From Thermovirgaceae bacterium (GTDB lineage: Bacteria > Synergistota > Synergistia > Synergistales > Thermovirgaceae), in assembly GCA_046542505.1 (NCBI GenBank), contig JBKHBH010000012.1, forward strand, positions 1 through 35,344: a stretch of DNA of 35,344 nucleotides, in the 5' to 3' direction. The first letter of the stretch is position 1, and each line of letters begins with the position of its first letter. A program made the translations under genes and the position numbers. Positions 6,858 to 14,958 of the stretch are shown here, in pieces. Below the pieces are notes generated by a model. It saw nothing but the letters and a program-made list of their open reading frames with translations. It searched no databases and was not told the DNA's origin.

Positions 6858-7385
6858 TTACCAGACCGGTATGCTTTTCCGGATCAGTCCTTCCACAAGA
6901 GGAAGATCGTACACCTGTACGAAAAGGACCCTTTCCGGAAGCACCCTGAATAGCTCATACGACACTTCTTTCCAAGGCTGCGCGAATTCTATCCTGTTTT
7001 GCCCGAAGCGCTCCGACCCGACCCGTAGAAGCAGCGTTTTCCATCGCCTTCGCCCGCCTCGGAAGACGAACCATTCAGGACCGGTGCTGAAGGATCCGTT
7101 CCTCGGAAATTCCGCCGGAAGGCCCGCGTTATGGGATTTGACCCGTTCCTGCCATTGCCATATCCATCCGCTGGATATCACGTATTCGTCTTCAACGGGT
7201 GTCTTCTGGACCGAATGGGTATATGTCGTCACCAGACGTTGTCCGAGGGGTACAGGAACACGAAGCCAGGTTCCCCTTTTTTCAGAAAGGGCAATCACTG
7301 AAACGGGAGAACAGAGGATAATAACACAGCTTGAAACTACGAAAAGCAATAAAAAATACATGCGAAGGCTGCGCAGCATTTTCAT
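6858..7385 (-). CDS. DUF1850 family protein
   Basis: N-terminal hydrophobic segment, YTHSVQKTPVEDEY, SHNAGLP; directly upstream of a fused TRAP permease as is usual for this family. Confidence 0.85.
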   Translation of the reverse strand: MKMLRSLRMYFLLLFVVSSCVIILCSPVSVIALSEKRGTWLRVPVPLGQRLVTTYTHSVQKTPVEDEYVISSGWIWQWQERVKSHNAGLPAEFPRNGSFSTGPEWFVFRGGRRRWKTLLLRVGSERFGQNRIEFAQPWKEVSYELFRVLPERVLFVQVYDLPLVEGLIRKSIPVW

Positions 7386-8205: not shown

Positions 8206-8281
8206 TGGCGGGCCTGGCCCGATTCGAACGGGCGACCTACGGCTTAGGAGGCCGTTGCTCTATCCCCTGAGCTACAGGCCC
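8206..8281 (-). tRNA. tRNA-Arg(CCT), 76 nt, encoded CCA
   Basis: GGGCCTGTAGCTCAGGGGATAGAGCAACGGCCTCCTAAGCCGTAGGTCGCCCGTTCGAATCGGGCCAGGCCCGCCA: 7-bp acceptor stem, anticodon loop CTCCTAA, GTTCGAATC T-loop. Confidence 0.97.
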
Positions 8282-8284
8282 GGA
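8249..8284. repeat. att direct repeat copy 1 (tRNA nt 1-33 plus 3 nt of leader)
   Basis: AGGCCGTTGCTCTATCCCCTGAGCTACAGGCCCGGA; 35/36 identical to 14923-14958. Confidence 0.93.
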
Positions 8285-8326: not shown

Positions 8327-8449
8327 GGGTTCACAAGCTTTTTCGGAGCCTCCTTCGTTACTGCCCATTTTGGCAGGTAAGGCCCTCAAAATGACCGTGG
8401 CCGATGCTCTAAAATGCCCCTTTTCTCCGCCTTTGCAGGGTTGACATTT

Positions 8450-9126
8450 ATGGAAGAAAGAGCCCATATTGTTTTGTTTCGGGAAATGTTCGGGTCCTGG
8501 GAGGAGACCCTGGAAGCCTTCATTCTGTTCAGGAAGGATGAAGGGTTTGCCGACAGGACACTCAAGGACTACCGCTATACCGTCTCCCGTTTCTTCCGGG
8601 AGCACCCCACAGCATGGGACCCATCAAATACCCGGGCCGCTGTCTTGTCTTATCTCGGGCAAGACGGTATCGCACCGACGACCTTCATCATACGAAGGAA
8701 GTATCTCAAGGCATTCTTCTCGTGGCTTGTGAAAGAAGGAGCCTTCCCGGAAAACCCCGTTCGTGGCATCCGGACCAGGAAGGCGGAACCCCGTGTGGTG
8801 CAGCACTCGGCAGAGATTCTTCAAAAACTTCTCCGCCTTCCCGACAAGTCTTCCTATTGTGGTAAGCGTGACTCTGCACTCATGTGCCTGTCCCTCGATA
8901 CAGCCATCCGGCCCTCTGAAGCACTCTCGCTTCTTATAGAAGATGTGGACCTTGAAGACATGTTAGTCAACATTAGAGCATCCATAGCAAAGACTCGCAG
9001 GAGCCGAATACTCCTCTTCTCAACAGAAACGGCAAAGTCAATTCAGGGCATGCTCATGGCACGGCCCAAAGAATGGGGCTCACCTTTTCTTTTTACCAGC
9101 CATGAAGGGAAGCAATTCAGAGCCTC
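8450..9126 (+). pseudogene. Tyrosine recombinase/integrase, C-terminally truncated
   Basis: SAM-like N-domain (RTLKDY, LKAFFSWL, ENPV), RDSALMCLSLDTAIRPSEAL (catalytic Arg) and KTRRSR (Lys). Similarity ends at the IS end at 9127, with no HxxR or catalytic Tyr. The frame runs on to a stop at 9205 inside the IS. Confidence 0.85.
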
Positions 9127-9492
9127 AGTCAAGTCCCAGAACTGCGGTAAATTTGGACCCGGTTACATATATTCACCGCCACGTCCTCTGATTGAGCCAT
9201 GTTGACTGGCTGTTTCATTGAGGCCTTTCCTTCCGTTCCCGTTCCGCCTTCGATTCCAGCGCATGCTTGAGGAGGTCCTTGACCACCGATTGAAGGCAGG
9301 TCTAGTCTCCCTGCAACAGGGACTGGACAATTTCGTTGTCAAGATTTCTGTCGTTTTTGTCACCGGTTCACCCCTTCGGTTTGTGTTTTCTCACTGACTA
9401 CACTGTAACCGAAGTCCCGGTGGTTTTTGTCTTCCCATCGATTGCCGCTTTTTTTTCAGACGACTTTTTTACAGCACTTCAGGGGCTCGATC
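9127..9492 (-). mobile_element. Internally deleted IS256-family element (366 bp, both ends retained)
   Basis: Imperfect terminal inverted repeats AGTCAAGTCCCAGAACTGCGGTAAA (9127-9151) and GATCGAGCCCCTGAAGTGCTGTAAA (minus, 9492-9468), 18/25 identical. The minus strand has RBS+GTG at 9363 and a frameshifted NLDNEIVQSLLQGD*TCLQSVVKDLLKHALE resembling IS256 transposase N-termini. Confidence 0.7.
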
Positions 9493-9627: not shown

Positions 9628-10965
9628 ATGGCCCTTACCCACCGGATCCAGGAATTCGCAGGACCTCTTTCCAACAGGGACATCCGGGCAAACATCGGCT
9701 GGCTTTTGTCCGAAAGGGGCTTCCGGCTGATCGTGAGTTTTCTGGTCAGTATACTTCTGGCCCGTTACCTGGGGCCTCCAAGACTGGGGATCCTCAACTA
9801 TGCCCTCTCGCTGAAAACCTTCTTCGGCGCTTTCGTCTACATGGGGCTGAGCGGACTGCTGGTAAGGGAAATCGTCCGTTCTCCACAAGAAGAACCGGTA
9901 CTCATGGGTACCACCTTCGTCCTGAAAATGCTGGGGGCTTTTTTGGGTTTTCTGATCCTGGCCACCTTCGCCTTCGTTACTGATCCCGCCGCCGGGACCG
10001 AATTCATGGTGGTTTTCATTATTGGTCTAAGTCTCTTCCCGGGAGCCTTCGAGTGCATCGAGTTCTGGTTCGAGGCTTACGTGAGATCCAAATATTCTGC
10101 AATCGCAAAGAACATCGGTTTCACCCTCTCCTCGGGCCTGAAAATCCTGCTGGTTTTCTTCAACTGTGGGCTGGTCACCATAGCCGTCGTTTCCGCCCTG
10201 GAATTTTTTCTCTCGGGAGCCTTGCTGGCGCTCTTTTACTCCCACAAGGGAGGAAAAATCAAGGCCTGGACCTTCCACCTGGAAAAAGCTCTTTACCTGT
10301 TGAGCCAGTCCTGGATAATAATCCTTTCCGGTTTTCTGTCCATGGTTTACCTGAAGGTCGATCAGGTAATGCTGAGGTTCATGGCAGGAACGAAAGGGGT
10401 CGGAATCTACTCCGTAGCAGCCCAGATCTCGGAAGTCTGGTATTTCATAGCCATCTCCATTGCCGCCTCCGTTTTTCCCAGGCTTATCAAACTCAGGAAG
10501 GAAGATCCTGCGCTCTATCACAAGAACCTCCAGCAGGTTTTCGACGTGCTGTTCGTAATATCGCTGACTGTTGCTGTAATATTCCAGATACTGGCGGGAA
10601 GGCTTGTACCGCTTGTTTACGGCGAAGCATACCGGGAGACGGCGGTGATACTGCAGATCCATATATGGGCCGGAATCTTCATGTTCCAGAGGGCCCTGTT
10701 GAGTAGATGGTTTTTCATAGAGCACGCCCTGCGCTTTTCCCTCTACAGCCACGGTCTGGGAGCTCTTTCGAACATCCTGCTTAACCTGGCGCTGATTCCT
10801 GTACTAGAGGGCCGTGGAGCAGCCGTGGCAACAATAATAAGTTATGGTATGTCCTCCTACTTTTTCCTTTTCCTCTGGTCCATGACAAGGCCCATGGGAA
10901 GGATGATAACCAGATCCTACATGCTCCCGCTTCGACTTTATTCAAAATGGAGGCAGGGAAGATAA
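9628..10965 (+). CDS. wzx: Wzx-type oligosaccharide flippase (MOP/MATE-like)
   Basis: ANIGWLLSER, LARYLGP..G, YLKVDQVML, GIYSVA, NILLNLALIP..GAAVAT; many transmembrane segments. Confidence 0.92.
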   Translation: MALTHRIQEFAGPLSNRDIRANIGWLLSERGFRLIVSFLVSILLARYLGPPRLGILNYALSLKTFFGAFVYMGLSGLLVREIVRSPQEEPVLMGTTFVLKMLGAFLGFLILATFAFVTDPAAGTEFMVVFIIGLSLFPGAFECIEFWFEAYVRSKYSAIAKNIGFTLSSGLKILLVFFNCGLVTIAVVSALEFFLSGALLALFYSHKGGKIKAWTFHLEKALYLLSQSWIIILSGFLSMVYLKVDQVMLRFMAGTKGVGIYSVAAQISEVWYFIAISIAASVFPRLIKLRKEDPALYHKNLQQVFDVLFVISLTVAVIFQILAGRLVPLVYGEAYRETAVILQIHIWAGIFMFQRALLSRWFFIEHALRFSLYSHGLGALSNILLNLALIPVLEGRGAAVATIISYGMSSYFFLFLWSMTRPMGRMITRSYMLPLRLYSKWRQGR

Positions 10966-10966
10966 A

Positions 10967-12286
10967 ATGCTCACCCTTTCGGATGTAATCCAAAACCGGC
11001 TTTGCTGCAGCTGCGGCGCCTGCTCCGCGGCCTGCCCGACGGGCGCGGTGGATTTCGTGGAAACCACCGGGGGCAATATCCAGCCCCACATCGATCACGA
11101 AAAGTGTATTTCCTGCGGACGCTGCGTATCCGTCTGCCCAGGTGCGAGGCTCGCCGGCGAGGTACTCCGTAACATGCCCGAAGACATCTTTTCCGGCAAC
11201 GTCCTGGGATCTTACGTGGGAAAGGCCGGATACAGGGAAATCCATGAAGGAGGACAGGGGGGAGGTGTTGTCACTGCCCTTCTGCGGCATGCCTTCGAAA
11301 ATGACATGATAGATTCAGCAACGGCGGTTTCCATGGGATGGGGAGCTCCACCGAGGCCTCAACCAAGGCTTATAACCGACGTCGAGGAGCTTTACCTTGC
11401 CCAGGGATCGAAATACGCGCCGGTCCCCCTGCTTTCGGTACTCAAGGACAACGCTGAAAAAGGCCACCGGATAGCTTTCGCAGGCCTTCCCTGCCAGGTT
11501 CAGGGGCTGAGGAACCTGGCTTCCGTGGTTCCCGCTTTTCAGGAGAAAATCGTCATCACCATTGGTCTTTTTTGCGACCGGACCCTTACGGCGGCGGCAA
11601 TTGACTTTCTGATAACCGAAGCAGGGCTGACAAAAGATGACCGGTGCAGGCTCTCTTTCAGGGACAAGTCCTGCGGCGGCTTTCCGGGCAACGTATCGAT
11701 AAGGACCGAAGACGGCCGAACAAGGGTGCTCGAGGCAAAAAAACGCATGGAGATAAAGGATCTTTTTACCCCGCCGCGGTGCAGGATATGTTTCGACAAG
11801 ATGAACGTCTTTTGCGACCTGGCGGTGGGAGACCCTTGGGGAGTCAGGGAATATGACAGGAACCAGGGTGAATCCGTCATTGTCACAAGAACAAAAAAAG
11901 GGGAAAACTTCCTGGATTCGGCCATGGCTTCGGGGTCTATTCTGGCCAGGGAAGCTTCCTGCTACAGCATCCTCAAAGGGCAGCGCATTCACGAGAAACG
12001 AAGGGTTTGTACGAACTACCTGGCGGCCTGGAGGGATTTGGGCTATCATTTACCCGACTATGCGAAAAAAATCATGGATATTCCTGCGTCTTCTTCCGGT
12101 AATTTCCGCCGCTCCCTTCTCAGATCCGTAAGACTGGACGATTTAGCCTCCCGCAGGGAGCTTCTGGAAGAAGCAGCAAAAGAAACGCGATTTGTAAAAA
12201 TAAAAAGTAGCCTACAGTTTCCCTTGAAAATACTCCGTGGAATGATATCCTTCGCAGCCGCTTTTTTCAATGGGAAGAAGGAGTGA
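10967..12286 (+). CDS. Coenzyme F420 hydrogenase/dehydrogenase beta subunit (FrhB/FdhB)-like protein with N-terminal 2x[4Fe-4S] domain
   Basis: CCSCGACSAACP and CISCGRCVSVCP, GGVVTALL, QGSKY, GLPCQV, IGLFC, CRICFD, DLAVGDPW. Confidence 0.9.
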   Translation: MLTLSDVIQNRLCCSCGACSAACPTGAVDFVETTGGNIQPHIDHEKCISCGRCVSVCPGARLAGEVLRNMPEDIFSGNVLGSYVGKAGYREIHEGGQGGGVVTALLRHAFENDMIDSATAVSMGWGAPPRPQPRLITDVEELYLAQGSKYAPVPLLSVLKDNAEKGHRIAFAGLPCQVQGLRNLASVVPAFQEKIVITIGLFCDRTLTAAAIDFLITEAGLTKDDRCRLSFRDKSCGGFPGNVSIRTEDGRTRVLEAKKRMEIKDLFTPPRCRICFDKMNVFCDLAVGDPWGVREYDRNQGESVIVTRTKKGENFLDSAMASGSILAREASCYSILKGQRIHEKRRVCTNYLAAWRDLGYHLPDYAKKIMDIPASSSGNFRRSLLRSVRLDDLASRRELLEEAAKETRFVKIKSSLQFPLKILRGMISFAAAFFNGKKE

Positions 12287-13440
12287 CAAAAGTGTTTATT
12301 GAAATCAAGGGGGCGGAGTTCGTCAACAGGGGGGCGGAACTTATGCTCCGGGCGATCCTTCAGCGACTGCGGCCAGAGTTCCCCGGGGCCTGTTTTGTCC
12401 TTGCTCCATGGCTGGGCCGTGACAATAAGAAAAAAAGAGAGGAACTGGGGCTTTACAAAAAAATTTGGTTTCCTTCAAAGTGGGGTATCCAGCCGGGCTA
12501 CCTGGGCAACCTGGTTCCAGAAAAATTACGCAGGATCCGTGGATTTGTTGTTCATAACGAGATTTCCGTGGCCCTCGACTCTTCGGGCTTCGCTTATACC
12601 GACCAGATGGGAGAGGACAAGACCCTGGACATGGCAAAGGCCGCCAAAAGATGGGGCAAGCTGGGAACTTCGGTCGTCCTGCTACCCCAGGCTTTTGGAC
12701 CCTTTTCCTCCCGGAAAATTCGCTCGGCTTTCAGAACCATAGCCGAAAACTCCGAATACATCTTTCCCCGGGATGACGTATCCTACAGGTACGTTACGGA
12801 ACTGGCCGGGGAATCCCCCCGGATCATCCAGGTACCGGATTTCACCATAGGGGTAAGGGGCGTTGTCCCCGAAATCTTTCCGGAGGGACGCGTCGCAATA
12901 GTCCCAAACAGACACATGATCGGCAAAACGTCCAGGGAGGAAAGTTCAAGGTACGTGCCGTTTCTGGTATCCTGCATAAGAACCCTTGTTTCGGCCGGTG
13001 AAAAACCTTTCTTCCTGATCCACGAAGACAAAGGGGACCTGGAGATTGCCGAAAAAATTAATGCCGAATTTGATCCAGGCCTTTACATATACCAGGAAGA
13101 AGACCCCCTGCGTCTGAAGGGGACCATCGGCAGGTGCAAGGGAATGATAGGCTCCAGATTTCACGGCCTGGTAAGCGCGCTTTCCCAGGGAATACCGGCT
13201 TTCGCCGTAGGATGGAGCCACAAATACGAGGCTCTTTACAGGGACTTCAACTTTCGCGAGGGCATGCTTTCCCTGGACCTGGAAGGGCGGGAACTCGAGG
13301 ACAGGTTGAAGCCCCTGCTTGATCCCTGCTCGGGGAAAGAACTCAGCGTCAGATTGGAATCTGCAAAAGAGGAAAACATGATAAAAGTCGAAAAAATGTG
13401 GGAGTTAGTTATCGGACTCATTAGGAGCAAAACTGGCTGA
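12283..13440 (+). CDS. Polysaccharide pyruvyl transferase family protein (WcaK-like)
   Basis: NRGAELML, LPQAFGPF, IFPRDDVSY, VPD, IGSRFHGLVSALSQGIP, WSHKY; GTGA overlap with the upstream stop. Confidence 0.9.
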   Translation: MTKVFIEIKGAEFVNRGAELMLRAILQRLRPEFPGACFVLAPWLGRDNKKKREELGLYKKIWFPSKWGIQPGYLGNLVPEKLRRIRGFVVHNEISVALDSSGFAYTDQMGEDKTLDMAKAAKRWGKLGTSVVLLPQAFGPFSSRKIRSAFRTIAENSEYIFPRDDVSYRYVTELAGESPRIIQVPDFTIGVRGVVPEIFPEGRVAIVPNRHMIGKTSREESSRYVPFLVSCIRTLVSAGEKPFFLIHEDKGDLEIAEKINAEFDPGLYIYQEEDPLRLKGTIGRCKGMIGSRFHGLVSALSQGIPAFAVGWSHKYEALYRDFNFREGMLSLDLEGRELEDRLKPLLDPCSGKELSVRLESAKEENMIKVEKMWELVIGLIRSKTG

Positions 13441-13505
13441 AACCATCAAGCAGTATGAATTTGCAAGAAGGACTATCCCGGCAGAAAGGCATGCAGAGGA
13501 ACCTG

Positions 13506-14429
13506 ATGAAGACAAAGATAAGTATCATAGTCCCGGTATACAACGACCCAGAGGGGTTGAAAGACACCCTGGAATCCCTCGTGGCCCAGGATTTTCCACG
13601 GTCAGGTTTTGAAATTGTGGTCGTGGACAATGGTTCCACCGACAACACCCACGAATTGGCAGAAAGTTTCTCCGCACTTCACCCGAACATCGTCAAGGTG
13701 GCCATTGAAGCCAGGTTCAGGACATCCTACGCGGCCAGAAACAAGGGCATAAGGAGCAGCTCAGGGGAAATTCTGTGTTTCATAGACGCCAATATGACGG
13801 TGGATTCAGACTGGCTCAACAAAGTGTCAGAGCTTTTTTCCTCGGAAGCGGTGGACGCCGTCGGGTTTCACGTCAAGATCATGAGGGAAAACGGCTCCGG
13901 CATAACATCGCTGTACAACAAGGTCACGGGATTTCCCGTCAAAAGATATATCGAAAGAGCCGGTTTCGCCCCGACCTGCTGTCTGGCCGTAAGGCATTCG
14001 GTAATAGAACAGGTCGGCCCTTTCGACTGGCGGTTGATGTCCAGTGGAGACGTGGAATTCGGACACCGCCTTACAGGATCGGGGTTTTCTCTCCATTACG
14101 AAGCTTCCATTGTTATGTATCATCCCGCACGGGAAACCTTCGCCTCTCTGACCAAAAAATACGTGAGGATAGGAAGGGGATTGAGGCAGCTGAGAGTTTT
14201 CTATCCGGAAAGGTACAAGCCCTCGTATTTCATGAAACGGAACCAGCTGCCCCTGAATCCCATGGAATTCACCGAATGGGTCCGTAATACCCCGGAAGCC
14301 GCAAAACACTGGATAGGGATGACCATACTGCTTTATTGCATAGCCTGGTTAACCAAATTCATCAAGATCTTCGGCTATTTCAAAGAAGCGCTGAAACCAA
14401 AAAGGCTTCCCCAGCTTGGAACGGAGTAA
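13506..14429 (+). CDS. Glycosyltransferase family 2
   Basis: ISIIVPVYN, EIVVVDNGSTD, AARNKGI, ILCFIDAN. ATG 13506 has GAGGA upstream; the frame is open from 13455. Confidence 0.92.
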   Translation: MKTKISIIVPVYNDPEGLKDTLESLVAQDFPRSGFEIVVVDNGSTDNTHELAESFSALHPNIVKVAIEARFRTSYAARNKGIRSSSGEILCFIDANMTVDSDWLNKVSELFSSEAVDAVGFHVKIMRENGSGITSLYNKVTGFPVKRYIERAGFAPTCCLAVRHSVIEQVGPFDWRLMSSGDVEFGHRLTGSGFSLHYEASIVMYHPARETFASLTKKYVRIGRGLRQLRVFYPERYKPSYFMKRNQLPLNPMEFTEWVRNTPEAAKHWIGMTILLYCIAWLTKFIKIFGYFKEALKPKRLPQLGTE

Positions 14430-14459
14430 CACCCGGAAGCCGCAAAACGCCCGCCCGCT

Positions 14460-14867
14460 TCAGCAGGGAAGACCCTTTTTGCAGACGGTGTCAATGTTCA
14501 TGAGAATCTCGATATTTTCCAGTGGATTTTCGTCCAGCACGATAAAATCGGCCGCCTTCCCCTCTTCCGGCATGCCTAAACGGCCGTCGATCCCGAGTAC
14601 TTCCGCGGCCTTCCCCGTGGCGGATTTCAGCGCATCCATTGCTGACATACCCGCATCCATCATCAGCTTGAGCTTTAGGGCGGCCCCATCGTGCAGGTTG
14701 AAGGAAGTTTCCGAGTCAGTGCCCAATGCCACCTTGACACCCCTTTCGTGGGCTTCTCTGAAGCTTTCCAGGTGAAGGTCGGATATTCTTTTGGCCTTTT
14801 CCACCGCGAAGGAATGAATCCCCCATCGAAGCCGTGTTTCGTGTTTTATTATGAAATAAGGCGCCAC
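14460..14867 (-). pseudogene. Metal-dependent amidohydrolase, C-terminal fragment
   Basis: GVKVALGTD, AGMSAMDALKSATGKAAEVLG, EGKAADFIVLDENPLENI. The N-terminal metal-binding region is absent and there is no room for it before the att repeat. Confidence 0.8.
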
Positions 14868-14922: not shown

Positions 14923-14958
14923 AGGCCGTTGCTATATCCCCTGAGCTACAGGCCCGGA
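14923..14958. repeat. att direct repeat copy 2 (displaced 5' fragment of tRNA-Arg)
   Basis: AGGCCGTTGCTATATCCCCTGAGCTACAGGCCCGGA; one mismatch to 8249-8284; no T-arm or CCA follows. Confidence 0.93.

Follow-up and report, generated by a model that had tools for sequence, protein, structure and literature searches.

A pair of overlapping genes in the genome of a Thermovirgaceae bacterium (phylum Synergistota) is read here, with moderate confidence, as a two-step module that would modify a surface glycan exported by a Wzx-type flippase, giving one of its sugars a lactyl (1-carboxyethyl) ether. The genes lie on contig JBKHBH010000012.1 of assembly GCA_046542505.1, in a stretch of 35,344 nucleotides (nt; positions 1 to 35,344) that was analyzed as a whole and is called the window below. 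The first gene encodes an FrhB-like Fe-S flavoprotein and the second a polysaccharide pyruvyl transferase (PvT) of family PF04230, and both belong to a four-gene glycan cassette carried by an islet at a tRNA-Arg gene. An earlier note on this DNA had proposed that the pair acts in the manner of MurA and MurB and yields a lactyl ether rather than a pyruvate ketal. This proposal draws its support from comparative evidence, namely the O58 and O124/O164 antigens of Escherichia coli set against strain K-12. Sugars with lactyl ethers serve as acidic epitopes in O-antigens and in capsules, and to our knowledge the enzymology of lactyl ethers is untested outside MurA/MurB. In Klebsiella, K22, K37 and K66 may carry carboxyethyl-GlcA.

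The pair is read as an enolpyruvyl transfer followed by a reduction in view of the fold of the reductase, the residues kept in the PvT, the precedent of vinyl reduction by BciB, and the improbability of F420 as the electron donor. In the first step, the PF04230 enzyme would transfer an enolpyruvyl (1-carboxyvinyl) group from phosphoenolpyruvate (PEP) to one hydroxyl of a sugar. In the second, the FrhB-like flavoprotein would reduce the C=C bond of the vinyl ether to give the lactyl ether, before a second hydroxyl closes the ketal. Electrons would enter at the protein's own 2x[4Fe-4S] domain and reach the flavin by way of a core [4Fe-4S] cluster, the presumed donor being a low-potential carrier such as ferredoxin and not F420. 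Both reactions would take place on the cytoplasmic side, on a putative acceptor that may be a nucleotide sugar or the lipid-linked oligosaccharide. The GT2 glycosyltransferase encoded next to the pair probably attaches the sugar on which the lactyl group is found, perhaps with this group already in place, and the co-inherited Wzx would flip the finished lipid-linked unit. The logic proposed is that of MurA and MurB, whose target is peptidoglycan instead of a surface glycan: MurB reduces the enolpyruvyl group to a lactyl ether in a flavin-dependent manner, with NADPH as the electron source where the present reductase would probably use an Fe-S chain. The preceding reaction, a PEP-dependent enolpyruvyl transfer to a sugar hydroxyl, is carried out by MurA (PMC6801904, PMC10435577). 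Neither protein of the pair is a member of the Mur families, since Pfam gives only PF04230 for the PvT, and the FrhB families plus Fer4 for the reductase.

The window consists mostly of minus-strand housekeeping genes, broken at 9628-14429 by the four plus-strand glycan genes (Table 1). The successive spacings between wzx, the FrhB-like gene, the PvT gene and the GT2 gene are 1 nt, minus 4 nt and 14 nt. The GTGA overlap described in the earlier note was found as stated, with the TGA stop of the FrhB-like gene (12284-12286) overlapping the GTG start of the PvT gene (12283-12285). Another in-frame GTG, at 12292 and 8 nt downstream of a GGAG, may be where the PvT really begins; the two genes would then be 5 nt apart without any overlap, and their coupling would be tight in both cases. 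The flanking of the pair by a flippase and a GT2 was likewise borne out by Pfam, and no hydrogenase or formate dehydrogenase subunit is encoded in the window.

The FrhB-like protein exceeds the Pfam cut-offs for FrhB_FdhB_N (PF04422; 71.9 bits, cut-off 22) and FrhB_FdhB_C (PF04432; 102 bits, cut-off 23.3), and it also matches 4Fe-4S dicluster models. A 2x[4Fe-4S] ferredoxin domain at its N-terminus is followed by the FrhB core and then by ~95 residues of helical tail. The two CxxCxxCxxxCP motifs pointed out in the earlier note are both complete (C13/C16/C19/C23-P24 and C47/C50/C53/C57-P58). Among 22 aligned relatives, the residues C176, C203, C272, C275, G99 and G100 are invariant; we take the four cysteines to be the ligands of the core [4Fe-4S] cluster and the GG to be the flavin motif. 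For the AlphaFold model (pLDDT 90.2), the best folds in the Protein Data Bank (PDB) are beta-type subunits of F420-reducing enzymes, Fsr, FrhB and HCAR, with Foldseek matches to 8riu_B (E 7.9e-19), Fsr 7np8 (2e-16), FrhB 9r51_B (2.4e-16) and HCAR 5dqr (1.7e-13). A profile search of the PDB agrees with Foldseek (HCAR 5dqr, E 1e-13). Residues ~341-434 form long helices past the region matched in the FrhB, Fsr and HCAR structures; this tail is kept in close relatives, with the motifs GQ..KR..W and LP.Y, and might serve for docking to the PvT or to the membrane. Prediction of a complex between the two proteins of the pair scored 0.00, the mark being 0.32; it counts as 'no answer' and is evidence neither way.

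The family name invites another explanation, that the protein is a true F420-linked beta subunit of energy metabolism (from a hydrogenase, a formate dehydrogenase or an F420H2 dehydrogenase) which stands beside glycan genes by chance. In its favor are the automatic names of the database relatives, since all of the 120 listed (30-54% identity) are called 'coenzyme F420 hydrogenase beta' or are nameless, together with matches of 81-102 bits to the NCBIfam FrhB and FpoF models. However, these scores are far under the cut-offs of 269-475 bits (81 against 331.5 for FrhB, 93.5 against 475 for FpoF), which places the protein outside the true beta subunits of F420 enzymes as these models define them. 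Partner subunits are lacking in the window, no PF01996 F420 ligase was found in the host genome (93.5% complete), most relatives are adjacent or fused to a PvT, and homologues are present in O-antigen clusters of E. coli. Thus, this explanation is close to refuted, and its probability is considered minimal. Among the control genomes, E. coli gives no match to PF01996 either. F420 is therefore an unlikely donor, the ligase being found neither in the host nor in E. coli, which also hosts homologues of the protein. The ferredoxin-type electron input suggested by the earlier note is likely on these grounds and on that of the protein's own 2x[4Fe-4S] domain. A precedent exists in BciB, an 8-vinyl reductase annotated as FrhB, which PMC4836224 describes as a ferredoxin-dependent reductase with FAD and Fe-S clusters that converts a vinyl into an ethyl group. 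BciB and the plant chlorophyll enzyme HCAR share the fold and family of the FrhB-like protein and act outside methanogenesis, but their substrates are tetrapyrroles, they have no PvT partner and they are not encoded in glycan loci.

The pairing itself is widely conserved. Related loci were searched in one-genome-per-species contigs with a 16-sequence alignment, and 64 loci were found to encode the closest relatives of the FrhB-like protein. A PvT is adjacent or fused in 56 of them: in 49 it lies within <=150 nt on the same strand (36 downstream and 13 upstream), and in seven the two are fused in one gene. Fusion to PF04230 is also seen in two of the 120 listed database relatives (P0112 and P0113). 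Pfam confirmed PF04230 in 58 of the 59 neighboring open reading frames (ORFs) tested, the exception being a 111-residue fragment at a contig end. As for the other loci, the PvT is farther away or broken in three (L030, L034 and L055), lies 5.5 kb off on the opposite strand in L018 and is not found within 6 kb in L019, while the contig stops at the FrhB gene in L038, L045 and L048. In 36 of the 64 loci the immediate neighbor of the pair is a wzx-like gene, usually upstream, which suggests a conserved three-gene unit whose flippase is matched to the modified repeat unit. An independent sample came from another order, the one to which locus L057 belongs; 401 of its genomes were searched by PF04432 alone, with the window sequence unused. 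Ten matches were obtained in nine genomes, all with a PvT adjacent (six), fused (three) or one gene away (one). The occurrence of the pair in other polysaccharide loci, as claimed in the earlier note, is confirmed by both samples, and from gene order the pairing is judged not to be due to chance. Moreover, the fusions argue for a single coupled reaction.

The converse does not hold. Among 14 control genomes, PF04230 occurs in nine and PF04432 in four; six of the nine genomes with a PvT (E. coli, Bacillus subtilis, Thermus thermophilus, Deinococcus radiodurans, Thermotoga maritima and Lactococcus lactis) have no FrhB-family gene, and the chromosome of E. coli K-12 contains wcaK and gives no PF04432 match. 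Within the host phylum, a PvT is found in 150 of 151 genomes and an FrhB-family gene in 41 of 151, the near-universal PvT copy being CsaB.

The behavior of the PvT family bears on a second explanation, in which the PvT alone carries out ordinary ketal pyruvylation and the FrhB-like protein contributes to that glycan pathway a redox activity that is accessory to this reaction or unrelated to it. The biochemically characterized PF04230 enzymes considered here, CsaB and Pvg1p, make ketals (PMC10435577), and the window PvT, which matches profile positions 1-280 of 280, keeps all of the family-universal residues, including D107, G139, R163, D186, D252, R292 and H294. The last two correspond to the PEP-binding residues of those homologues (K337/H339 in Pvg1p and H308 in CsaB; PMC10435577), and are universal in 102 aligned PvT domains. 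Thus, CsaB, WcaK and Pvg1p share with the window PvT both the Pfam family and the R-x-H motif; they differ from it in that these ketal enzymes have no FrhB-like partner, and in that CsaB and WcaK fall in other clades. The window PvT scores 68 bits against the CsaB equivalog (TIGR03609), whose cut-off is 213.1, and the NCBIfam WcaK equivalog gives no match to it, while PvTs of the same genus do pass as CsaB (235 and 239 bits). Consistent differences set it apart from the CsaB clade, such as W311-S312-H313 in place of Y-D-P. That the window PvT is the housekeeping CsaB of the phylum was considered and rejected on account of this score and of its position in the tree. The islet copy is the sole PF04230 match in the host genome, although 150 of the 151 genomes of the phylum have a PvT; the housekeeping csaB of the host either falls within a gap of the assembly (completeness 93.5%) or is truly missing.

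A tree of PvT domains was built from 101 rows, leaving out duplicate loci and domains with fewer than 250 profile positions, the O124 enzyme being among those dropped. The window PvT belongs to a group of 58 rows (SH-aLRT 89 in a quick search) in which every PvT is FrhB-linked and to which the enzymes of O58 and type X also belong. None of the 23 rows of the CsaB clade (SH-aLRT 99) is FrhB-linked, and WcaK is also unlinked. The linked/unlinked label changes five times on the tree against a shuffle mean of 25.5 (0/500 shuffles as low), a clustering that is partly built in, since the linked rows were largely picked by their likeness to the window. The O124 PvT falls in a second clade; of its five 'unlinked' members, four have an FrhB-like gene 2.2-5.7 kb off on the same contig and the fifth sits at a contig end. 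Ketal makers do without an FrhB-family gene, as seen in K-12, in the five other control genomes and in the CsaB clade. This fact, the fusions and the E. coli antigens described below make pyruvylation by the PvT alone improbable.

The link between the pair and lactyl ethers comes from E. coli loci with known glycans. They were reached by distant DNA searches that led from a low-GC relative (L078) to a type-X cluster and then to O58. Beyond that, searches from the O58 and type-X pairs led to no additional E. coli types, and O124 was reached only via glf. The clusters of O146, O69 and O150 (lactyl) and of O149, O112ac and O156 (ketal) were not found by these searches. The O58-labeled cluster contains rmlBDAC, wzx(O58), an acetyltransferase gene, the PvT and FrhB-like genes, wzy(O58), glycosyltransferase genes and manCB. 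The O124/O164 cluster (= Shigella dysenteriae type 3) consists of galF, wzx, the FrhB-like gene, the PvT gene (4-nt overlap), GT2, GT32, wzy, GT2, glf, GT2 and gnd. In both cases the pair is formed by the same two Pfam families as in the window, on one strand and overlapping or adjacent, within a Wzx-dependent locus, and the order wzx-FrhB-PvT-GT2 of O124 is identical to that of the window. One difference is that the E. coli reductases give no Pfam match to a 4Fe-4S dicluster domain, whereas the window protein has a complete 2x[4Fe-4S] domain; another is that E. coli has a full O-antigen cluster in place of a four-gene islet at a tRNA gene. Regarding the PvTs, that of O58 falls in the all-paired group of the window enzyme, on a branch short of strong support (SH-aLRT 89), and that of O124 in the second clade.

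According to the review PMC7685785, L-Rha carries a lactyl group in O58 and D-Glc does in O124, and in O164 the lactyl-Glc is replaced by Glc, owing to a frameshift in wfeP. In three of six genomes with O124/O164-type clusters, a 1-nt deletion breaks the PvT gene in two and the FrhB-like gene is intact, which fits the published frameshift if wfeP is the PvT gene; wfeP is apparently the PF04230 gene of O124. The earlier note had proposed to check its idea by the co-occurrence of the pair with known structures, and the named serogroups bearing the pair, O58 and O124/O164, are indeed listed with lactyl groups and not with ketals in that review. E. coli K-12, on the other hand, makes the colanic-acid ketal by means of WcaK, and ketals are the products of the characterized CsaB and Pvg1p as well (PMC10435577). 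Outside E. coli, PMC4616057 mentions Klebsiella K8, K22, K37 and K66 as types with PvT genes whose capsules lack pyruvylation; its totals over 79 loci are one 'coenzyme F420 hydrogenase' gene and two 'nitroreductase' genes. In addition, a preprint describes a 234-Da sugar, proposed to be glucolactilic acid, in Campylobacter species that have a pyruvyl transferase gene in the pgl operon.

It is important to note that several observations weigh against the lactyl-ether reading of the pair. The literature searched gave no enzyme assay for any such pair, and there is no glycan structure for the host organism. The FrhB-like protein of the window shares 24% identity with that of O124, and the two PvTs are not alignable by BLASTP; furthermore, a quick tree search gives SH-aLRT 89, which is not strong support, for the branch uniting the window PvT with its O58 counterpart. 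The labels O58 and O124/O164 are annotation names from RefSeq, not serology, and wzx and wzy are annotated as frameshifted in the O58 genome. A third E. coli O-type (L088, NZ_CP096837.1, 7829-15641) has the pair and receives no serogroup name from RefSeq or NCBIfam. This type of cluster, found in 7 of 5,426 genomes and formed by wecB, rmlBDAC, wzx, the PvT and FrhB-like genes, GT2, wzy, GT4 and DUF1972, may be another lactyl serogroup. Within the host phylum, only 10 of the 29 FrhB-like loci examined have a PvT within 1.5 kb. Finally, the tree of FrhB-like proteins (107 rows) needs 13 changes of PvT linkage, of which well-supported branches force at least 8, and the O124 reductase groups with paralogues from metabolic, non-glycan contexts. 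These paralogues adjoin an AbrB-family membrane protein, an aminotransferase or a molybdoenzyme, and include a second gene of the host. Both features of the tree indicate that the reductase family is versatile and that function cannot be read from its phylogeny alone. The idea that all FrhB-like genes are linked to a PvT was rejected, as many in the host phylum are unlinked.

The second FrhB-like gene of the host genome (contig C85, 1-1143, locus L087) runs off the contig end and encodes a 4Fe-4S dicluster domain. It adjoins genes for an AbrB-family membrane protein and MsrB, and its orthologues in relatives (L159 and L160) are found in non-glycan contexts. In a locus of the same order (L162; G540:C22, 6079-10161), an FrhB-like gene is directly upstream of genes for a molybdopterin subunit of the xanthine dehydrogenase type and a [2Fe-2S] subunit, an arrangement in which the FrhB module is possibly an electron-entry subunit.

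This versatility leaves some room for a third explanation, in which the module does combine PEP transfer and reduction but gives another product, for example a further-reduced or rearranged three-carbon substituent or a sugar reduced elsewhere. The reductase family is diverse, as it includes hydroxymethyl reduction by HCAR, vinyl reduction by BciB and sulfite reduction by Fsr; the linkage to the PvT arose several times, and the clade of the window is distant from the E. coli enzymes. Nevertheless, the only structural correlates, O58 from the same PvT group and O124 from the second one, point to lactyl ethers. A different product is considered unlikely, although slightly less so than a ketal made by the PvT alone, and the lactyl ether is preferred over both.

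As for its genomic setting, the cassette is carried by a 6.7-kb islet at tRNA-Arg, with direct repeats of 36 nt at both ends. Between the repeats there are a truncated integrase gene, the four glycan genes and an amidohydrolase gene fragment (Table 1). A complete genome from the same genus (G482) has, at this site between ribF and tRNA-Arg/pcm, a different element of ~12 kb which encodes two integrases (one of them full-length), a Mutator-family transposase, a D5_N primase and an ankyrin protein, without any glycan genes; its second repeat copy at the tRNA-Arg site is 70 nt long. No FrhB-family gene was found in this complete genome. The presence of different elements at one site in both genomes means that the tRNA-Arg site is an integration hot spot and that the four-gene cassette is acquired cargo.

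Table 1. Features of the tRNA-Arg islet and remaining genes of the window.
Feature	Position	Strand	Evidence and remarks
tRNA-Arg(CCT)	8206-8281	-	ARAGORN
Left 36-nt repeat copy	8249-8284		Repeat search; tRNA-Arg 5' half
Truncated tyrosine recombinase (integrase remnant)	8414-9205	+	Pfam Phage_integrase, profile positions 9-108 of 172
Wzx-type (MOP) flippase	9628-10965	+	Pfam Polysacc_synt 84 bits, also Polysacc_synt_3; first gene of the operon
FrhB-like Fe-S flavoprotein	10967-12286	+	439 aa; Pfam and NCBIfam
PF04230 polysaccharide pyruvyl transferase (PvT)	12283-13440	+	385 aa; PS_pyruv_trans 110.6 bits
GT2 glycosyltransferase	13455-14429	+	Pfam Glycos_transf_2 96 bits; last gene of the operon
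Amidohydrolase gene, C-terminal fragment	14460-14867	-	Pfam Amidohydro_1, profile positions 219-342 of 345
Right 36-nt repeat copy	14923-14958		Partial tRNA-Arg 5' half, 35/36 bases identical; islet end
Other window genes			rluD, ileS, TRAP permease, pcm, ribF, truB, nrnA, rbfA, infB, nusA, rimP
Other window genes, continued			guaB, ispDF, recR, rlmH, V-type ATPase genes

Some additional features of this region can be mentioned. The part of tRNA-Arg(CCT) duplicated in the islet repeat is the 5' half, as far as the anticodon loop, the 3' end being the more usual part; consequently, islet DNA is now found upstream of the intact tRNA-Arg. An exact 17-nt direct repeat, CCCGGAAGCCGCAAAAC, is present at 14291-14307, inside the 3' end of the GT2 gene, and at 14432-14448, past its stop codon; the two copies are 141 nt apart and may be a recombination scar. 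Between the TRAP permease and pcm genes, a 175-residue ORF (6858-7385, minus strand) has an N-terminal hydrophobic stretch that resembles a signal peptide; it gave no NCBIfam match at E <= 1e-20, and no Pfam search was made on it.

The idea of the earlier note is not new: according to its title, a 2006 paper by Senchenkova in BBRC reportedly assigned two genes to glucolactilic acid in the context of enterobacterial O-antigen genetics. Literature searches returned neither an assay of such a reductase nor an explicit assignment of an FrhB-like gene. A review of pyruvate substitutions does not contain the word 'lactyl' (PMC6801904). The features proper to the window are the complete ferredoxin domain and the tRNA-linked islet; its carriage by such an islet is a new detail, and no new principle is added.

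In a broader sense, there is about an even chance that a mobile cassette at tRNA-Arg adds a lactyl-ether side sugar to a Synergistota surface glycan, that its reductase is a ferredoxin-driven analogue of MurB with an unrelated fold, and that the pair belongs to a multi-phylum pathway in which PF04230 enzymes stop at the enolpyruvyl stage. If the lactyl-ether reading is true, the common database name 'coenzyme F420 hydrogenase beta subunit' would be wrong in polysaccharide loci, and the pair could be used to predict lactyl ethers, and not pyruvate ketals, directly from sequence, which would be useful for glycan structure prediction and for serotype genetics. To this picture the window contributes the ferredoxin-domain version of the pair, in an anaerobe whose genome yielded no F420 ligase, together with its own flippase and glycosyltransferase on the islet.

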